From the sequence record OR352958.1: DNA of 64,000 bases, one strand, 5' to 3'. Source of the stretch: Escherichia phage AV128. Below are positions 24,741 to 33,089 of this stretch, piece by piece; position 1 is the first letter of the stretch, and every line of letters begins with the position of its first letter. The notes beneath the pieces were generated by a model. The model was not told where the DNA came from, did no database searches, and saw only the letters and a program-made list of their open reading frames with translations. The translations under genes and the position numbers were made by a program.

Positions 24741-24768
24741 GACCCACACTTGTTGTGGGTCTTTTTTC
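24741..24768 (+). terminator. Rho-independent terminator
   Basis: Stem gacccaca/gtgggtc, loop cttgtt, T6 tail. Confidence 0.65.
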
Positions 24769-24793: not shown

Positions 24794-24822
24794 TTGCTGT
24801 AAAATAATTTAGCTATTATACT
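24794..24822 (+). promoter_or_regulatory. sigma70-like promoter (TTGCTG-17-TATACT)
   Basis: Hexamers and spacing read directly upstream of the enzyme cluster. Confidence 0.45.
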
Positions 24823-24846
24823 TCTCATATCACCCACAAAGGACAA

Positions 24847-25842
24847 ATGAACATGAAACAACCTGTAATGATTATCGGCGGCGGTTTGGCAGGACTTATT
24901 ACCGCGTGTCACTTCCCGAACTCTATTGTGTACGAAGCAGGGGAACGAGCGCAACAGCACAAGGCGCTGCTACGCTTTCGCGGCGAAGAAGTAAGCCGTA
25001 TTACCGGAATCCCTTTTAAGGCCGTGACAGTTGACAAGGCTGTGTATTTTCGCGGCAACTACTACCACGACCATTGCCCAATCAACCTTGCCAATATGTA
25101 TTCCATGAAGGTCACCAATCAGTTTGGCAGCCGTTCAATCATGAAGCTTAAAACTGCAACGCGTTATATTGCGCCTGATGACTTTTATGATCAGCTTGTC
25201 GACAAACTGGGTGACCGCATATTCTTTAATACTCCGGTAGATACTCTTTGCGGCTATAGCGAGACGCCAATCATCAACACGTCGCCGCTGCCAGTCATGA
25301 TGAAGCTGGCTGGGATTGATCAAAAGCTTGATTTCTCATTCGATAAAGCAAACATTCGTGTTTACCGCTTTAAGATTAAACGTAAGTGTGATTTGTATCA
25401 GACAATTTACTTCCCTGACTACTCCGTCAGAACTTATCGCGCATCAATTACTGGTGACACGCTTATCATTGAAACAATTCCTTTGGTCAGCGTGAGTGAA
25501 GCTGCAGTTGAAGCCGCTGGCGGCATCACTCGTTACCGTGACATGAAGCTGCGCGCAGAAGTCGACGAAGTGTTGACAGCCTTTGGCCTCTCATGGAGTG
25601 ACATTGCTCTTGAAGAAGTTGAAAAGGTCGACCAGAAATATGGCAAGATTGTCGACATTCCGAAAGACTTGCGACACGCCCTACTCCTGCAGCTGACTAT
25701 GGATTTGAACGTGTTCAGTGTCGGTCGATTTGCTACCTGGCGCAACATTTTGCTTGATGACGTTGCCCATGACCTTGTTGAAGTTGAAAAACTCATCAAA
25801 GCAAATAACTATCAAAAATTTGCTTATATTGCTAATAAATAA
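24847..25842 (+). CDS. FAD/NAD(P)-binding oxidoreductase
   Basis: N-terminal Rossmann dinucleotide motif MIIGGGLAGL; 331 aa; start 24847 or 24853. Confidence 0.6.
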   Translation: MNMKQPVMIIGGGLAGLITACHFPNSIVYEAGERAQQHKALLRFRGEEVSRITGIPFKAVTVDKAVYFRGNYYHDHCPINLANMYSMKVTNQFGSRSIMKLKTATRYIAPDDFYDQLVDKLGDRIFFNTPVDTLCGYSETPIINTSPLPVMMKLAGIDQKLDFSFDKANIRVYRFKIKRKCDLYQTIYFPDYSVRTYRASITGDTLIIETIPLVSVSEAAVEAAGGITRYRDMKLRAEVDEVLTAFGLSWSDIALEEVEKVDQKYGKIVDIPKDLRHALLLQLTMDLNVFSVGRFATWRNILLDDVAHDLVEVEKLIKANNYQKFAYIANK

Positions 25843-25850
25843 TTTGCTTT

Positions 25851-25887
25851 CTGCTTCAATGGGCGTATACTTTAATCATTGAAGCAG
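25851..25887 (+). other. intergenic hairpin (11-bp perfect stem) without U-tail
   Basis: ctgcttcaatg / cattgaagcag with 15-nt loop between the FAD gene and the next gene. Confidence 0.3.
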
Positions 25888-25907
25888 AACTCATAGAGGA
25901 AACGAAA

Positions 25908-26354
25908 ATGAAACGAATCACTGGAATCGCGCTTGCCGCTACTGCTATTCTCGGCACCATGTATATGGAAGCGACTGAAGCTGCCATCCGCACTTCCGAT
26001 TCAGTCGCTGTTTACGATTGCGAAGCGATGGACGGTAAGACCGCAGCAACGACTGGTGCGAAGATTACCACTTACATCGGTGTGAATGAGCAAGAAGGTC
26101 TGAATATTCAGATTCAGGGATTCACAGGGAAAGGTGCCAACCGTACTCCGTGGATGCAACGTTTCACTTTCGTCCAGCCTCGTTCAACTGGCGGCTTTAT
26201 CAATCTGATTGGTGAAAACCGTTCTGGTGCAGAAATCTTTACATCAATGAGTTCTAATAATGAACCAAAGAAAAGTTTTCAGTTGCTTTATAACGCACAA
26301 TTCGTTTATCATTGCACCTTCTCTGGTGATCAGCAACTAGTGAATTACCGTTAA
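25908..26354 (+). CDS. secreted protein (signal peptide, two Cys)
   Basis: N-terminal MKRITGIALAATAILGTMYMEATEA signal-like segment; GAGGAA RBS. Confidence 0.55.
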   Translation: MKRITGIALAATAILGTMYMEATEAAIRTSDSVAVYDCEAMDGKTAATTGAKITTYIGVNEQEGLNIQIQGFTGKGANRTPWMQRFTFVQPRSTGGFINLIGENRSGAEIFTSMSSNNEPKKSFQLLYNAQFVYHCTFSGDQQLVNYR

Positions 26355-26367
26355 TAGGACAATTAAA

Positions 26368-27171
26368 ATGAAAGTTGAATTAATTCGATACACCCAAGAT
26401 GCACTTGACCTTTTGCTGGAAACAAAGAACACGCGCATGACTGGTAAGCCTGTCTCTGAGATGACGGAATCAGAGAAGCAAGAGCATTGGCGCTACATGC
26501 TTGATACAATCAAGTCTCCTTTTGACTTTGTGGACTATATCTTTGATATCACAGCTGTATCAAAGAACATGACCCATCAGATGGTACGCACACGCACAGG
26601 CGCATATCAAGAACGCACCAGCCGCGCTCAGGAGTCGTCTGCATTTGATGCGATTCGTCCTGCTAAATTCACTTACCCAGAGGATGATCCAAAGGGATGG
26701 ACTCGCCATGACGAGAAGGCCGCTGAACTGGCAGAGAAGTGGGATGATGCGATGGCGACTATCGATGCTTTGTATCAAGAGCTTCGCGCGGCTGGCGCAG
26801 AGATTCAAGATGCACGTGCCGTATTGCCTTCTAATATGCAAACGCATATCATGGCAAAGTTCAACTTGCGCACGCTGCAGCAGATGGCGTCAAACCGCTT
26901 GTGCACGCGCACGCAAGGAGAGTATCAAGAAGTATTCCGCGCAATGGTTGCGGAAGTCCTCAAGGTGCACCCTTGGGCGAATCCATTACTGCAGCCGCAA
27001 TGCATTGGTATGGGTAAGTGCGCATTTCCTCGTCACGGTAAAGCCCATTGCCCTTGGTATCGTGATTGGATGGATACCACGGCACAGCAAGAAGAGTTGC
27101 GCATCCAGTTTTGGAGTGCGATGCCAATCACCAACAATCCAGTTGCTAAAGATGGAGTATCAAAAGGATGA
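26368..27171 (+). CDS. thyX: ThyX-like flavin-dependent thymidylate synthase homolog (divergent)
   Basis: Segment VRTRTGAYQERTSR resembles ThyX RHR-x7-S-x-R motif with H replaced by T; ARAVLPSN...NLRTL block also ThyX-like. Confidence 0.6.
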   Translation: MKVELIRYTQDALDLLLETKNTRMTGKPVSEMTESEKQEHWRYMLDTIKSPFDFVDYIFDITAVSKNMTHQMVRTRTGAYQERTSRAQESSAFDAIRPAKFTYPEDDPKGWTRHDEKAAELAEKWDDAMATIDALYQELRAAGAEIQDARAVLPSNMQTHIMAKFNLRTLQQMASNRLCTRTQGEYQEVFRAMVAEVLKVHPWANPLLQPQCIGMGKCAFPRHGKAHCPWYRDWMDTTAQQEELRIQFWSAMPITNNPVAKDGVSKG

Positions 27172-28040
27172 GCATTAAAAACAGCGAAATCTTAAACGTA
27201 TTCGACCTTGACGGAACGCTGTTTGATGACCGTTGGCGCTTAGACCGCATCAAGGTGGCAGGTCCGTTGTCAGACTATGATGATTATCACAGCGGTATTG
27301 GTTATGATCAGTTCTATCCTCACATTGCATCAGCAGTAGAGTCGGCATCTCTTCGCGGTGAGGCGGTTGAATATTGGACTGCAAGGCCAGAAAAATACAG
27401 ACAAGTGACTTTTGAACGTCTGGACAATGTTTTTCCTTTTGATGAATTTACAATCAAGATGAGAGACTATGGCGACAAACGTCCATCAACTATTATGAAA
27501 TCTGCATGGCTATCGCACGCATTGCGGCACGGCGATTATCGAATCATCAATGTATTCGACGACCGACAAGACGTACTCGCGCGGATGCAAGATGAAGCAT
27601 TGTATTATAATTCCGTTGCTCAAAATAAAATCTCTTTTACATTTAATCTTTGCAAGGCAGGTGAAGTGGTGCAACAATTAGCAATTGATCCAAGCGCAAC
27701 AGGGCAAGAAGAGACTAAGGCTGTGGAAGTTGAACAATCTCCGGCAACTGCCGCCGATATTCTTGATGCAATGGCAGCAACCTTCCGTGAGCGCAACGCT
27801 GTCTATGGCGATAACGCTGTGATGGTAGGTCAGGTTATGCAAGTGCTTTTCCCTAATGGCGTGACGTTGAAAACGCCGGAAGACTACCACATGTGGCATC
27901 TGTTCGAACTTAAGATTGTCAAGCTTACACGCTTCGCAATCAGCGGCCTGAAGCACGAAGACTCTATACACGATGATGGTGTTTACAGCGCCATGTGTGA
28001 ACGTCTTGTTAACACCCATAATATTAATTTCAATAAATAG
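27168..28040 (+). CDS. HAD-superfamily phosphatase-like protein with extra C-terminal domain
   Basis: VFDLDGTL motif I and VFDDRQDV motif IV-like; C-terminal 120 aa unassigned. Confidence 0.55.
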   Translation: MSIKNSEILNVFDLDGTLFDDRWRLDRIKVAGPLSDYDDYHSGIGYDQFYPHIASAVESASLRGEAVEYWTARPEKYRQVTFERLDNVFPFDEFTIKMRDYGDKRPSTIMKSAWLSHALRHGDYRIINVFDDRQDVLARMQDEALYYNSVAQNKISFTFNLCKAGEVVQQLAIDPSATGQEETKAVEVEQSPATAADILDAMAATFRERNAVYGDNAVMVGQVMQVLFPNGVTLKTPEDYHMWHLFELKIVKLTRFAISGLKHEDSIHDDGVYSAMCERLVNTHNINFNK

Positions 28041-28069
28041 TTTACTTGTGCGTTTCGATGAGTTATATT
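28041..28069 (+). promoter_or_regulatory. sigma70-like promoter (TTTACT-17-TATATT) with conserved leader TCATCGAAACGAA
   Basis: Hexamers read directly; homologous to promoter at 35032-35060. Confidence 0.45.
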
Positions 28070-28105
28070 TATCTCATCGAAACGAAGTCCAAAAAGGATA
28101 AATAA

Positions 28106-28789
28106 ATGAAAAAAGTAATTGTTGTAACTGGCTGCAATTCCGGTCTTGGTAAATCCATTTTTGACACCCTTGGCGCTTACGGTCATGAAGTTGTCGGTAT
28201 TGATTTGGAGAACGGCTATGACATCCGTAACGCGAAACAGATGAAAGAGCTTCTCTCTCAATACGACGTAGAAGGCTTGATCAACTGCGCTGGCGTCAAC
28301 TCCAACAACTGGTTCGAAGATGTTAACTACGAAGAGTTCAATCGCGTTATGCACACCAACGCCTTCTCTTTCGTCAACACGACTCAGGCCGCGCTGAAAA
28401 GTCTTATTGACAACAAAGGTTTTGTGATCAACATCGTTTCCAACGCTGCGCATATTCCTATGACGTCCAGCTTGTGTTATAATGCTTCCAAGGCTGCTGC
28501 GCTCATGATTAGCAAGCAGATGGCTCACGAGCTTACGCCTAAATACGGGATCACGGTATTCTCTATTAGTCCTAACAAGCTACGTGGTACTGGCATGTCC
28601 AAACAGATTGAAGATGCTGTTTGCGCGACTCGCGGCTGGACTCCTGAGTATGCTGCTGAATACCAGAAAAAGGCGTTGATGAATGGATTGGAGACTGAGC
28701 CGCAAGTAATTGCTGACTTCATTCGACATATCTTAATTACGGGCGCATGGCGCTTTATGTCTGGCACTGATATTCCATTTGGTAAATAA
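28106..28789 (+). CDS. short-chain dehydrogenase/reductase (SDR) family oxidoreductase
   Basis: VTGCNSGLGKS cofactor-binding motif and YNASK catalytic motif. Confidence 0.7.
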   Translation: MKKVIVVTGCNSGLGKSIFDTLGAYGHEVVGIDLENGYDIRNAKQMKELLSQYDVEGLINCAGVNSNNWFEDVNYEEFNRVMHTNAFSFVNTTQAALKSLIDNKGFVINIVSNAAHIPMTSSLCYNASKAAALMISKQMAHELTPKYGITVFSISPNKLRGTGMSKQIEDAVCATRGWTPEYAAEYQKKALMNGLETEPQVIADFIRHILITGAWRFMSGTDIPFGK

Positions 28790-28885
28790 ATCACGAACAC
28801 TTGAAGTTATCACACCCGCTCCTGAAAAGAAACAGGACGAAGACAACACAGTAATCAATCAATAATATTTAATTAAGGAAACAAA

Positions 28886-29437
28886 ATGCCACATTTTAAA
28901 ATTGAACAAATCGCCCTGTCAATTCCAGATGCTCAGCGCGCACAGGATTTCTTGGCTAAAATTGGTCTGACAGAGTGGTTCCATGATCACGTTGTTGCTA
29001 CTGGTCGCGTATTTGAAGCTGATGAATTCAAAGGTCAGCGTGGATATTGCACCAATGAAGCTGACTTGCGCTTCAATTATCAAGCTGGAAACGGAACTGA
29101 TGGCGGCGCTGGTAAGCCTCTTGAGCTTGAAATCCTTGACTACACAAAGGGGTGTAACTGGATCAGCGAAAACATTGAAATGCTCGATGCGCACGACAAT
29201 CAGGTTAGCCATCTTGGTATGCACGTGACTGCCGCTGAACTTGCTGAATGGCGCAAGTTCTTTAAAGAAGAAGGCATTCAGGTTGCGCAGGAAGTTGTGA
29301 CCGGCTCTCACACCAACCCAAACATTGCTGGTCAGCGTCGTTACAACTATGTGATCTTTGATACGCGTGAAATCATTGGTGTTGACCTTAAGTTCATCGT
29401 GCGGTTGAATCAAGACGGTACTCCGTACACTGTATAA
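28886..29437 (+). CDS. possible glyoxalase/VOC-fold protein
   Basis: N-terminal pattern loosely resembling VOC fold; weak assignment. Confidence 0.35.
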   Translation: MPHFKIEQIALSIPDAQRAQDFLAKIGLTEWFHDHVVATGRVFEADEFKGQRGYCTNEADLRFNYQAGNGTDGGAGKPLELEILDYTKGCNWISENIEMLDAHDNQVSHLGMHVTAAELAEWRKFFKEEGIQVAQEVVTGSHTNPNIAGQRRYNYVIFDTREIIGVDLKFIVRLNQDGTPYTV

Positions 29438-29453
29438 CGAATCGTGAATCTGT

Positions 29454-29478
29454 GGCCGTCCTAATGGGCGGCCTTTTT
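29454..29478 (+). terminator. Rho-independent terminator
   Basis: Stem ggccgtcc/gggcggcc (one G-U), loop taat, T5 tail. Confidence 0.6.
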
Positions 29479-29491
29479 GTAGGAGGCCAAT

Positions 29492-30034
29492 GTGTTATTT
29501 CTCCCTTATGACTTCGAAACAACCGGATTAACCGTGCACCCGAAAGCGCCGCTTGGGATGCAGCCGCGCCCTATTGAATTTGCAGGCCTGTTGACGGACG
29601 GCAAAGAGATTCTTGAAACGTTCGAGTTCATAATTAATCCTGAAATTGTGATTGAAGAAATCATCACAAAGATTACCGGATTAACAAATGAAGACCTTGA
29701 GTGCAATCCACCATTCATCCATTTCGTTCCGCAACTAAAAGAAATATTCAAGAAGACGGATGCAACTATAGCGCACAACCATGCGTTTGATAAAAACATT
29801 CTTGACTATGCATTACAGCGCGAAGGTCTTACACTTGGTGATGTTAATTTTCCAGAAATAAACATTTGTACAGTAGAGCAAACCTTGCCTATTTTTGGCC
29901 GAAGAGTTAAGCTTCAAGAGCTGTATGAATTATATTTCGGAAAATATGAACAGAAACACCGTGCATTAGACGACGTAATATTGCTGCACAAAGTTTGCCA
30001 ACAAATTGGCGTATATGACATCTGGAGCAAATAA
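29492..30034 (+). CDS. DnaQ-like 3'-5' proofreading exonuclease (DEDDh)
   Basis: Exo motifs DFETTG, HNHAFD, HRALDD; GTG start with AGGAGG RBS. Confidence 0.75.
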   Translation: MLFLPYDFETTGLTVHPKAPLGMQPRPIEFAGLLTDGKEILETFEFIINPEIVIEEIITKITGLTNEDLECNPPFIHFVPQLKEIFKKTDATIAHNHAFDKNILDYALQREGLTLGDVNFPEINICTVEQTLPIFGRRVKLQELYELYFGKYEQKHRALDDVILLHKVCQQIGVYDIWSK

Positions 30035-30191: not shown

Positions 30192-33089
30192 ATGTTTCCA
30201 CAATTGAGAGTTCGCAGCGGTTACACGTTCAAAGAAGTATATGGACGGCATCCTGAAATTATAGCACGGCTCAAAGAGTTGGGCTGCGAAGTCGCGGCAT
30301 TAGTTGATAACAATACATGGGGTCACGTCCGATGGGAAAAGGAATGTCAGAAGAATGATATCAAGCCTGTGTTCGGCATGGAGATTCCAATCATCGACCC
30401 TGATGCAGACCCGAAAAAGGGATTCAAACCGAAGGCTTGGATATTGGCTCTTGACCTGAAATCCTTTTACAATGCGACCACGCTTGCAACACAACGCGGC
30501 GGACTGACCCGTGCAGAGTTCGGGGCGCTCGATGGAGTCATTAAATTCTGTGGCGGTGCCGTGGAGTTGCTGCGACCAGAGGACTACGATTATATAGACG
30601 TCAACCCATCATCGTTCCTTTTGGCCAAGCGCCAGGTATTGGCTCACCGCAGCAACGGAAGGCCGCTTGTTTTAACCGGATACAACCACATGCCTTCACC
30701 TGCGCACGTTGACTTTGCTTATGCTTGGGAAGTTCGCGACACGGTTAAGCCGCACTGCATCGTTGACGCGGAAGACTTGCGCAAACAGCTTAAAGGAATC
30801 CTGACCGAAGATGAGTTGAATCAAGCAACGGCCAATGCGGTTGACATTGCAAACGGAATCGTGGGACTTGACCTGAAGCTGCGCAAGGCACCGATTATCC
30901 ACCTTGCTGGTGACATGGTAAAACTTGCTCGCGAGGGGATGGAGTACCGCCTTAAGGCAGGTCACATCAAAGAATGGACTCAGGAATATGAGGACCGATT
31001 CAACGAAGAGATTCACCAGATTCAGCTGAAAGATTTCGACTCATACTTTCTGGTGGTAGCGGACCTTGTTCGATTCGCAAAAACAAAAATGCTCGTCGGA
31101 CCCGCTCGCGGCTCATCGGCTGGTTCACTGGTTTGTTATTGCCTCGGCATCACGGAAGTCGACCCAATCCCGTATAAGCTGCTATTTGCCCGATTCATCG
31201 ACGTAAGCCGCGCCGACCTTCCTGATATTGATATTGACTTTGAGGATACCAAACGCTATATGGTGTTTGATTACCTTAAAGAAAAATACGGCGAAATGAA
31301 CGTTGCAAAGCTTGGCAACATCAACACGCTTAAGGCCAACTCAGTAATGGCTCAGGTTGGTAAGAAGTTCAACATTGGCTATCACGAAACGGCCAACATT
31401 AAAAACGCATTGCTTGAATACTCATCCGGTGACGCCCGTTATGGTCACGGCCTGGAGGATACCTTTGCAACAACGACCACGGGTCAAGAGTTCGTGGCGA
31501 AATATCCTGATGCCGCGCGTTGCATGGGCGACCTTGAGATTCACCCGTCCCACACAGGGGTGCACGCAGCGGGAATCATTGTGTGTAATGACCCAATCTC
31601 TGATTACTGTACTGTAACTGCAGAAGGGATTGCGCAAATCGATAAGCCTGACAGCGAATACCTTAACCTTTTGAAGCTTGATGCACTGGGCCTTCGTACT
31701 CTCGGCATTATTTCTGATACAGGCGTTATTGATGCTGAAACGCTTTACGGAATCAAGCTTGATGATCAAAGCGTACTTGACATTCTTAACGAAAACAAGA
31801 TGTCAGGCATCTTCCAGTTTGAAGGTGACGCTGTACGCTCAGTAACAAACTTTGTGCACGTCGACAACTTTAACAAAATCGACAACCTGACAGCTTTGGG
31901 TCGACCTGGCCCGTTGTCATCCGGTATGGCCCAGAAATACATTGAACGCGCGGCAGGGCGTGCGCCGATTGAATACGACGTGCCGCAGCTTGAGCCGTAC
32001 TTAAAAGAGACTTACGGAGTGTTTCTTTACCAAGAGCAAATCATGGCCGTGGTTAAAGAGATTGGTTCATTTGACTGGGCGAAAACGTCCGCTGTACGTA
32101 AGGCAATGTCAGGCCGTAAGGGTGAGGAATACTTCAACAAGCTTGGCGAGGACTTCGTTGCAGGCGCAATAAATAACGGCGTACCGGAAGCGGATGCAAG
32201 AAAGCTTTGGCAAGCAATGGCTACGTTCGGGTCATGGGGCTTTAACAAGTCGCACTCCGTGTCATACGCGGTCGTGACCTACTGGACATTGTGGCTTAAG
32301 CGACACTACCCGTTGGAATTTGCCGCTGCCTGCTTACGCGCTGCTAAGGACGAAGACCAGACGATTGCGATATTACGTGAACTTGCGAAGGAAGGCGTGG
32401 ATTACGTTCCAATCGACCCTGATCACTCTTCAATGAACTGGACAATCGCGAACGGAAAGCTAATCGGCGGCATTATGAACGCGAAAGGGTACGGAATGGT
32501 GAAGGCGATGAAGTACATCGAAGCGCGTGAAGCCGGAACCTTAACGCAGAAGCAAAAGGACGCATTGGCCAATGCTGAAGTAAAATATGGCGACCTTACA
32601 GAGATGCACACAAAGTTCGGCTGGGCGTATAATGACCCGTATCTGATTGGTGTGACGTCCGGCGCTTCAATACGCCAGATGAAGGAAGTCGGTGATGACG
32701 AGCGCGCAATAGTAATCGGCAAGTTGACAAAGAAAGTGCTTGCGGACGAGAACGAAGCAACACGCATCCGTAAACGACTTGAGCGCGGCATCTATACAAA
32801 GCACGGCAAGCTTAAAAAGGGTCTTCAAGCTGATGGCCGCTACGCAGAGTTTGACCAGTACGGGAACAAGCTTGAGACTCAGTTCATCGACCTTATGTGC
32901 AAAGACGACTCGACCGACTCGCCAATGCGCTTCAGGATTCGTCCAGAGAAGTTCCAGAAGTACGGGAAGTACATCGCTGAAAACGTCGGGAACGGCGCAT
33001 TCTTCCTGATGAAAGGTCGTAAGCTTGAAGGCATTGACATGTTCATCGTTGACGTGATCAAACAGGTGTATCCAGATGGCAACAAATAA
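30192..33089 (+). CDS. dnaE: DNA polymerase III alpha-like replicase (DnaE family, PHP domain), short form
   Basis: Blocks GPARGSSAGSLVCY, PDIDIDF, RPGPLSSGM, FGSWGFNKSHSVSYA match conserved DnaE motifs; 965 aa. Confidence 0.9.
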   Translation: MFPQLRVRSGYTFKEVYGRHPEIIARLKELGCEVAALVDNNTWGHVRWEKECQKNDIKPVFGMEIPIIDPDADPKKGFKPKAWILALDLKSFYNATTLATQRGGLTRAEFGALDGVIKFCGGAVELLRPEDYDYIDVNPSSFLLAKRQVLAHRSNGRPLVLTGYNHMPSPAHVDFAYAWEVRDTVKPHCIVDAEDLRKQLKGILTEDELNQATANAVDIANGIVGLDLKLRKAPIIHLAGDMVKLAREGMEYRLKAGHIKEWTQEYEDRFNEEIHQIQLKDFDSYFLVVADLVRFAKTKMLVGPARGSSAGSLVCYCLGITEVDPIPYKLLFARFIDVSRADLPDIDIDFEDTKRYMVFDYLKEKYGEMNVAKLGNINTLKANSVMAQVGKKFNIGYHETANIKNALLEYSSGDARYGHGLEDTFATTTTGQEFVAKYPDAARCMGDLEIHPSHTGVHAAGIIVCNDPISDYCTVTAEGIAQIDKPDSEYLNLLKLDALGLRTLGIISDTGVIDAETLYGIKLDDQSVLDILNENKMSGIFQFEGDAVRSVTNFVHVDNFNKIDNLTALGRPGPLSSGMAQKYIERAAGRAPIEYDVPQLEPYLKETYGVFLYQEQIMAVVKEIGSFDWAKTSAVRKAMSGRKGEEYFNKLGEDFVAGAINNGVPEADARKLWQAMATFGSWGFNKSHSVSYAVVTYWTLWLKRHYPLEFAAACLRAAKDEDQTIAILRELAKEGVDYVPIDPDHSSMNWTIANGKLIGGIMNAKGYGMVKAMKYIEAREAGTLTQKQKDALANAEVKYGDLTEMHTKFGWAYNDPYLIGVTSGASIRQMKEVGDDERAIVIGKLTKKVLADENEATRIRKRLERGIYTKHGKLKKGLQADGRYAEFDQYGNKLETQFIDLMCKDDSTDSPMRFRIRPEKFQKYGKYIAENVGNGAFFLMKGRKLEGIDMFIVDVIKQVYPDGNK

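Follow-up and report, generated by a model that had tools for sequence, protein, structure and literature searches.

Canonical ThyX, the flavin-dependent thymidylate synthase (FDTS), is a homotetramer whose active sites are built by three subunits. Its signature, RHR-x7-S, dates from Myllykallio 2002 and has served as a filter in PMC2826268. In the numbering of the Thermotoga maritima enzyme, deoxyuridine monophosphate (dUMP) is hydrogen-bonded by R78, R80, S88 and R90 (PMC3498832), the RHR motif makes hydrogen bonds to the phosphates and the ribityl chain of flavin adenine dinucleotide (FAD) in the solved structures (PMC6514825), and His53 stacks on the folate pterin and the reduced flavin while hydrogen-bonding to Y91, mutation of which makes flavin oxidation about 1000-fold slower (PMC11940539). 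Here we describe a ThyX-like gene of Escherichia phage AV128, carried on a stretch of 64,000 nucleotides from sequence record OR352958.1 that we call the window, and compare it with these systems. We argue, with a probability of roughly 0.6, that its product is a working phage-specific ThyX variant that converts dUMP to deoxythymidine monophosphate (dTMP), with an intact nucleotide site and what appears to be a remodelled cofactor side.

The open reading frame (ORF) is intact, is preceded by a Shine-Dalgarno-like AGGA and comes from a Wifcevirus myophage genome, whose region 24800-28800 shares 98.7% identity with Escherichia phage vB_EcoM_WFH and 93-98% with 27 further Wifcevirus records. The Pfam profile Thy1 (PF02511) matches the protein over profile positions 2-191 of 191 with E=2.9e-30 and 105.9 bits (gathering score, 24.8 bits), and the PHROG search assigns it to phrog_85, 'thymidylate synthase', with E=7e-39. 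ThyX likewise dominates the phmmer matches among PDB sequences, which are led by T. maritima ThyX variants at E~4e-5. When a monomer AlphaFold2 model, built with 65 homologues and having a predicted local distance difference test score (pLDDT) of 86.4, was compared with the PDB by Foldseek, the top 50 matches were all ThyX with probability 1.0; those to T. maritima ThyX had E~1e-9, template modelling (TM) scores of 0.58-0.72 and about 20% identity. The gene is a genuine and strongly conserved ThyX-fold homologue.

A first-pass annotation of this DNA had read the signature as RTR-x8-SR, with the conserved histidine replaced and the spacing shifted. The first of these claims is correct, since T. 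maritima H79 corresponds to Thr75 in both phmmer and hmmalign. The second is not. In the phmmer alignment, with which hmmalign agrees, mvRTRtgayqerTSRa lies column by column over wfRHRiasynelSGRy of T. maritima, and the third arginine of the triplet is separated from the final arginine by 9 residues in both proteins; the real motif is RTR-x7-T-x-R, in the same register as RHR-x7-S-x-R. The apparent shift was an alignment error, three independent alignments placing Thr84 under T. maritima Ser88. The signature serine is here a threonine, and Ser85, the serine of the earlier reading, occupies the 'x' position, where T. maritima has Gly and the wider subfamily Q, M or L. Judged by RHR-x7-S, the protein fails, two of the four specified residues being substituted (RTR-x7-T); it would pass the filter of PMC2826268, which accepts no more than 2 deviations.

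The ThyX blocks around the motif were said to be kept, and they are: the equivalents of Q75, R78, R80, E86, R90, R147, N163, R165 and R174 can all be found in the hmmalign residue map. Besides the four dUMP-bonding residues named above, we take R147, R174 and Q75 of T. maritima ThyX to be further dUMP contacts, R147 and R174 presumably to the uracil carbonyls. All of these contacts have their counterparts, namely R74, R76, T84 (a conservative change), R86, R150, R177 and Q71, which are invariant or nearly so across the family. For FAD we compared the first arginine of the motif (isoalloxazine), the RHR triplet (phosphates and ribityl chain), Ser/Thr55 and Arg165; according to the same map R74, R76, S50, N166 and R168 are kept, His79 has become Thr, and His178 has become Arg181. 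Thr75 is paired with Arg181 in 63 of 68 representatives, and this co-occurrence suggests Arg181 as a phosphate binder, a compensating change by which it may take over FAD-phosphate binding. The position of H53 is I, L or V in 121 of 125 subfamily representatives. As judged from the residue map, the substitutions at H53, H79, Y91 and H178 cluster on the cofactor (flavin/folate) side.

These observations bear directly on the proposal that RHR is the dUMP-binding element and that its alteration points to a new substrate. RHR contacts FAD, and since the dUMP contacts are retained and the changes fall on the cofactor side, that premise is unsupported. Of the broader suggestion of changed substrate or chemistry, the nucleotide part is made unlikely by these retained contacts; altered chemistry is a possibility, and would more plausibly concern the flavin, the folate/one-carbon or the reductant side than the choice of nucleotide. 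The first-pass annotation was right in calling the protein a divergent, non-textbook ThyX, given its approximately 20% identity to solved structures, its score below the cut-off of the NCBIfam thyX model TIGR02170 and the replacement of H53, H79 and Y91, all conserved according to the literature.

The unusual triplet is a stable property of a large group. RTR occurs in 120 of the 120 closest database homologues (52-99% identity), nearly all of them from contigs of 66-74 kb that resemble Pbunavirus, Wifcevirus or Myosmarvirus, and the gene differs from its counterpart in phage Mansfield by 46 synonymous and 3 non-synonymous changes (dN/dS 0.014). It is under strong purifying selection, and a one-off mutation, a pseudogene or a sequencing error is ruled out by these two results. 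A search of 1.84 billion cluster representatives yielded 1591 relatives at E<1e-3; in the 150 nearest of them, the position of the RHR histidine is occupied by T in 73 of 138, and by H in 32, Q in 14, S in 10 and N in 5. Thr being the commonest residue in these nearest representatives, RTR is the prevailing state in a large ThyX subfamily, and phages with only 30-40% identity keep to the same residue pattern. Eight loci with a ThyX-like gene emerged from a pattern scan of 185,579 species genomes (alignment A1), and all five that were long enough to examine are phage-like cassettes; the RTR subfamily is almost restricted to phage DNA. The view that the exchange of His for Thr is decisive finds no support. 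Locus L014, which has the same cassette as the window (see below), reads RHR while still having Ile in place of H53 and Met in place of Y91, and His and Thr thus alternate within the clade.

Three further features of these proteins deserve mention. Residues ~98-120 (window 26659-26727) make up the loop that follows the active-site loop; in phage ManiWeber/Bas99 this loop is unrelated and slightly longer, and outside it the ThyX-like protein of that phage is nearly identical to that of the window. The segment has the appearance of a mosaic, hypervariable one in an otherwise strongly constrained gene. The C-terminal tail NNPVAKDG-S-G (window 27130-27168) is nearly invariant in the family, the variants PVAKDGRTM, PVANKGRTM and QPK being recognisable in relatives of 35-45% identity, and may insert into an active site or into a partner protein. 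Finally, the Thy1 domain is interrupted by inteins in several relatives from the subfamily (P0157, P0166 and P0263), and in the first two of them the part beyond the intein resumes at about profile position 71.

In addition to its altered signature, the protein carries four cysteines that are conserved in 121 of 121 family members. C179 belongs to the ThyX core, two residues past the R174 equivalent; C212, C218 and C228 are located in a C-terminal extension of about 60 residues after the core. C212 and C218 are present in 70 of the 86 representatives with C179 and in none of the 58 without it. The pattern R-[LM]-C...C-x5-C-x(3-40)-C was found in 197 of 269 sequences, with a Pro after the last Cys in 107 of the 197 and CxxC pairs in 4 of them. 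The four residues probably form a Cys4 metal site, for Zn or a 4Fe-4S cluster. A PDB search with the C-terminal cysteine region returned no relative, chance triose-phosphate isomerase matches (E>0.1) being the only ones, and in the literature we found no paper on a ThyX with iron-sulfur or cysteine motifs. The site was also considered as a sign of a new function, an argument that we reject in view of a Cys4 ThyX that has a fully canonical signature and resides in an operon with FolD and formate-tetrahydrofolate ligase. On the metagenomic contigs concerned (L012 and L013) the thyX gene overlaps folD and lies upstream of the ligase gene, an arrangement that reads as a compact, cellular-looking one-carbon/thymidylate operon. 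Given this context, the Cys4 site is compatible with ordinary folate-dependent thymidylate synthesis.

Table 1. Features of the ThyX-like gene and its surroundings in the window (aa, amino acids; CDS, coding sequence; AF2, AlphaFold2; UGM, UDP-galactopyranose mutase)
Feature	Position	Strand	Basis or remark
Terminator-like hairpin and T run, upstream operon boundary	24741..24761	+	terminator annotated at same place in phage Mansfield
FAD-dependent oxidoreductase, UGM/amine-oxidase fold, 331 aa, phrog_4828	24847..25842	+	AF2 and Foldseek
ThyX-like CDS, 267 aa	26368..27171	+	ORF, Pfam Thy1, phrog_85, AF2/Foldseek, dN/dS
Ile48 at T. maritima His53 position	26509..26511	+	residue map; invariant in family
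Signature R74-T75-R76-x7-T84-S85-R86	26587..26625	+	phmmer alignment to TmThyX, hmmalign residue map
Ala87 at T. maritima Tyr91 position	26626..26628	+	residue map; invariant in family
C179, C212, C218, C228 (R-L-C-x32-C-x5-C-x9-C-P), putative metal site	26902..27051	+	conservation
HAD (PNKP-type) phosphatase with C-terminal DUF6378-like domain	27168..28040	+	Pfam HAD_PNKP E=5e-8; phrog_4889
Short-chain dehydrogenase/reductase (SDR), accessory cassette member	28106..28789	+	Pfam adh_short E=1e-31
VOC/glyoxalase-family protein, last gene of unit, Wifcevirus-specific	28886..29437	+	ORF; synteny
Terminator-like hairpin and T run, downstream operon boundary	29454..29473	+	terminator annotated at same place in phage Mansfield
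Epsilon-type 3'-5' exonuclease	29492..30034	+	follows cassette
DnaE-type DNA polymerase III alpha	30192..33089	+	follows cassette

The transcription unit to which the gene belongs runs, in order, through the FAD-dependent protein, a 148-aa protein, the ThyX-like protein, the HAD-DUF6378-like protein, the SDR and the VOC protein, and is followed by the exonuclease and DnaE (Table 1). The flavoprotein begins with GGGLAG at its N-terminus and matches no Pfam or NCBIfam family, nor did a PDB sequence search give any significant match for it; its AlphaFold2 model (pLDDT 86.6) was matched by Foldseek to monoamine oxidase, UGM and CtdE at E~3e-9 and 10-14% identity, and the counterpart in phage Mansfield has been annotated as UGM by HHpred. 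The start codon of the HAD-DUF6378 gene overlaps the stop codon of the ThyX-like gene (ATGA). Its C-terminal domain (residues ~188-290) is conserved in all related loci and forms a separate 111-aa ORF in locus L005. The DUF6378 match is weak and was obtained via the homologue in L007; that the domain is a MazG-like nucleotide pyrophosphatase is only a guess, and a PDB sequence search with the whole protein gave nothing significant. Homologues of the SDR fill the same slot in L007 and L021 (37% identity and E=7e-42 for the latter), and the VOC gene is syntenic with a 183-aa gene of phage Mansfield whose annotation reads 'glyoxalase family protein'. In Vibrio phage vB_ValP_VA-RY-3 (L009, 6369-7121) the SDR slot holds a sulfotransferase-like protein (Pfam Sulfotransfer_3, E=6e-7). 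On this evidence the slot after the HAD gene may be a variable small-molecule 'tailoring' position. The 148-aa ORF (25908-26354), between the flavoprotein and ThyX-like genes, has a signal-peptide-like N-terminus and no Pfam, PHROG or NCBIfam match; the Pbunavirus, Burkholderia and metagenomic cassettes have no counterpart of it, and it looks like a Wifcevirus-specific insertion within the operon.

The core of this arrangement, made up of the flavoprotein, the ThyX-like and the HAD-DUF6378 genes, in some loci an SDR, and then the epsilon-type exonuclease and DnaE, recurs in myophages and other phages whose hosts differ greatly. A flavoprotein homologue adjoins the ThyX-like gene in twelve related loci (L003-L005, L007, L009, L010, L014, L016-L018, L020 and L021), and homologues of both the flavoprotein and the DUF6378-like protein are found beside it in Pbunavirus SN, Burkholderia phage WTB, a 40-kb Vibrio podophage and a 203-kb Rhizobium phage, as well as in three metagenomic contigs and in five contigs from metagenome-assembled genomes (MAGs) attributed to different phyla (Desulfocapsa, Alphaproteobacteria, Cellvibrionaceae, Dehalococcoidia and Gastranaerophilales). 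Downstream, a DnaE-type polymerase follows in each locus with enough flanking DNA, the Rhizobium phage being the exception, with no DnaE within the 10 kb examined; in this phage, dUTPase and ribonucleotide reductase genes lie 3-5 kb downstream of the ThyX-like gene. The phage database has 361 records with the flavoprotein, which shares its counts with the ThyX-like gene for Pseudomonas (292), Escherichia (26) and Serratia (9) phages; the flavoprotein family comprises 1954 database matches. Gene order shows the ThyX-like gene to be deeply syntenic, and by prediction co-transcribed, with the flavoprotein, the HAD-DUF6378 protein and the DnaE-type replicase.

Taken together, the intact nucleotide site, the replication context, the dUTPase and ribonucleotide reductase genes of the Rhizobium phage and the lack of another annotated synthase make the conversion of dUMP to dTMP the most likely reaction; the 40-kb replication/early-gene part of Bas99 that was examined has neither an annotated ThyA nor any other annotated thymidylate synthase. 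The protein would then act as the thymidylate synthase of the phage replication module, binding dUMP and FAD and presumably releasing dTMP. Its cofactor side would have been rebuilt by exchange of His53, Tyr91, His79 and His178 for Ile, Ala, Thr and Arg, with Arg181 and Thr75 perhaps jointly holding the FAD phosphates, and a four-cysteine site, which would bind a metal, would have been added at the C-terminal end. The half-reaction in which His53 and Tyr91 take part in canonical ThyX, reductive or one-carbon, could be supported here by the neighbouring flavoprotein. The RHR of L014 and the Cys4 site of L012/L013 also mean that an odd signature alone need not imply a new reaction.

Several points weigh against this interpretation. 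The protein scores 81.8 bits with TIGR02170, just under the equivalog cut-off of 87.9. His53 and Tyr91 are both absent, their places being taken invariantly by Ile48 and Ala87, and their joint loss in the company of an obligate flavoprotein partner is left unexplained by the standard mechanism. Known ThyX systems are not strictly coupled to an uncharacterised flavoprotein and a phosphatase. In the literature we found no assay or complementation report for any member of the subfamily, and the unexplained resistance of Wifcevirus phages to restriction, in spite of the restriction sites in the window, would allow some part of the genome to serve in DNA modification. Searching the literature for the function of Pbunavirus ThyX, we found no paper. 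An altered reductant, one-carbon source or product is possible.

The alternative that fares best, which we hold tentatively and consider clearly less probable than ordinary dTMP synthesis, is that the ThyX-like protein, the flavoprotein and the HAD-DUF6378 protein constitute a new three-gene nucleotide pathway tied to phage DnaE replicases. It could take two forms. In the first, a synthase that has given up the folate/NADPH (reduced nicotinamide adenine dinucleotide phosphate) site of His53/Tyr91 might obtain electrons or the one-carbon unit from its partner flavoprotein, the electrons possibly travelling via a 4Fe-4S cluster on the four cysteines; in this respect, ThyX is able to use formaldehyde by way of a flavin carbinolamine (PMC8316439). 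In the second, the pathway might be the entry step to a C5-modified pyrimidine in DNA, which would account for the restriction resistance of Wifcevirus phages.

A somewhat more doubtful proposal goes further along the same line and regards the protein as a neofunctionalised pyrimidine C5-modifying enzyme with a product such as 5-hydroxymethyl-dUMP or an adduct. Without His53 and Tyr91, the exocyclic-methylene or carbinolamine intermediate would escape reduction to methyl, and the flavoprotein, the HAD-DUF6378 protein and tailoring enzymes (SDR, VOC or sulfotransferase-like) would process the product into a restriction-protecting base. This is consistent with the loss of catalytic-side residues in the presence of retained nucleotide-binding ones, with the documented role of Y91 in consuming the flavin carbinolamine (PMC11940539) and with the variable slot after the HAD gene, which holds an SDR in the window, L007 and L021 and a sulfotransferase-like protein in the Vibrio phage; a ThyA-family 5-hydroxy-dCMP synthase (PMC13326640) offers a precedent. 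It also speaks to the unexplained resistance of Wifcevirus to the restriction-modification (RM) systems tested. The window as a whole contains 13 EcoRI, 6 EcoRV and 6 EcoKI sites, with EcoRI and EcoRV at about half and EcoKI at about two-thirds of the dinucleotide-shuffled expectation; site avoidance is thereby ruled out as the cause, and the resistance needs another explanation. However, it could equally stem from one of many uncharacterised early proteins. In the examined region of the Mansfield and Bas99 genomes none of the kinases, glycosyltransferases or aGPT-Pplase-type enzymes known from thymidine hypermodification is annotated, and the His and Thr versions of the ThyX-like protein coexist in the same cassette. 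DNA of Pbunavirus JG024, from a genus with the same cassette, is cut by SacII as predicted, a weak argument given that SacII sites contain no T. Hundreds of such genomes have been sequenced and we found no report of base modification in them, nor any paper on DNA modification in PB1-like phages.

It is improbable that the protein is a ThyX paralogue acting on another nucleotide (dCMP, UMP or CMP) in the manner of PolB, an idea of the same kind as the changed substrate of the first-pass annotation. PolB does methylate UMP as well as dUMP (PMC5954106). The hydrogen-bonding partners of the nucleotide phosphate are conserved in the ThyX-like protein, as are the equivalents of R147 and R174, which contact the uracil carbonyls, whereas a cytosine-specific enzyme would be expected to alter such residues; moreover, the PolB structure 4P5A is matched at E=0.25 compared with E=4e-5 for T. 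maritima ThyX, and the gene sits in a DNA replication cassette, not a nucleoside-antibiotic cluster. A catalytically dead relic kept for structure or regulation, such as a subunit that binds nucleotides within the replisome, would fit the absence of H53, H79 and Y91, conserved and important in canonical ThyX, but is highly improbable in view of the low dN/dS of 0.014, the invariance or near-invariance of the replacements themselves, the full set of invariant substrate- and flavin-contacting arginines, and a residue pattern held at 30-40% identity as it would be for an active site.

The gene is best placed in a ThyX subfamily that is restricted to phages, has a Cys4 site and a remodelled cofactor side, and keeps a flavoprotein and a phosphatase as fixed partners. 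In hundreds of therapeutic-grade phage genomes (Pbunavirus, Wifcevirus, Myosmarvirus and others) it is annotated plainly as 'thymidylate synthase'; it can be taken as the type member of a phage-only branch of ThyX that lacks His53, His79 and Tyr91, has Cys4 and is locked to a flavoprotein and a phosphatase. Should dTMP still be made, this branch would be a natural experiment on which parts of the ThyX mechanism are dispensable, knowledge that is of value since ThyX is an antibiotic target. Should the product be another one, the gene would become a candidate for the mechanism, missing so far, by which Wifcevirus phages protect their genomes.

How, then, does this locus relate to the systems described to date? 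Thymidine hypermodification of the Weigele type uses ThyA homologues, not ThyX (PMC8989533). Its hallmarks are a ThyA-type dUMP hydroxymethylase, a 5-hydroxymethyldeoxyuridine (5-hmdU) DNA kinase and aGPT-Pplase or other transferases, and none of these genes is annotated in the syntenic region of Mansfield or Bas99. PolB, the polyoxin UMP/dUMP C5-methylase, sets a precedent for recruitment of the ThyX fold beyond dTMP supply (PMC5954106); in contrast to it, the ThyX-like gene stands in another genomic context, outside any antibiotic cluster, is only weakly matched by PolB, which is not its closest relative, and shows nothing in its nucleotide residues that hints at a ribonucleotide. The partner flavoprotein shares the two-domain FAD fold and the N-terminal GxGxxG with UGM and the flavin amine oxidases, but is shorter (about 330 aa versus 370-500 aa), is 10-14% identical to them and, unlike them, is always found beside the ThyX-like gene in a replication module.

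Among ThyX proteins, the Cys4-bearing cellular one (the metagenomic P0266 from L012/L013, with a related cluster member from a Methanobacteriota MAG) resembles the phage protein in having R-L-C...C-x5-C-x(n)-C at the end of the core, and is 28% identical to it over 223 residues. It differs in keeping the canonical H53, RHR, S, R and Y and in belonging to a FolD/formate-tetrahydrofolate ligase operon rather than to a phage cassette. With canonical ThyX/FDTS (T. maritima TM0449, M. tuberculosis Rv2754c and PBCV-1 A674R) the phage protein has in common the fold, at a target-normalised TM score of up to 0.72, the profile family, the register of the signature and the positions corresponding to R78, R80, R90, R147, R174, Q75, E86, N163 and R165. 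It departs from canonical ThyX in the changes H53 to I, H79 to T, S88 to T, Y91 to A and H178 to R, in its C-terminal extension with Cys4, in an identity of about 20%, in its obligate flavoprotein and HAD-DUF6378 neighbours and in its near-confinement to phage DNA.

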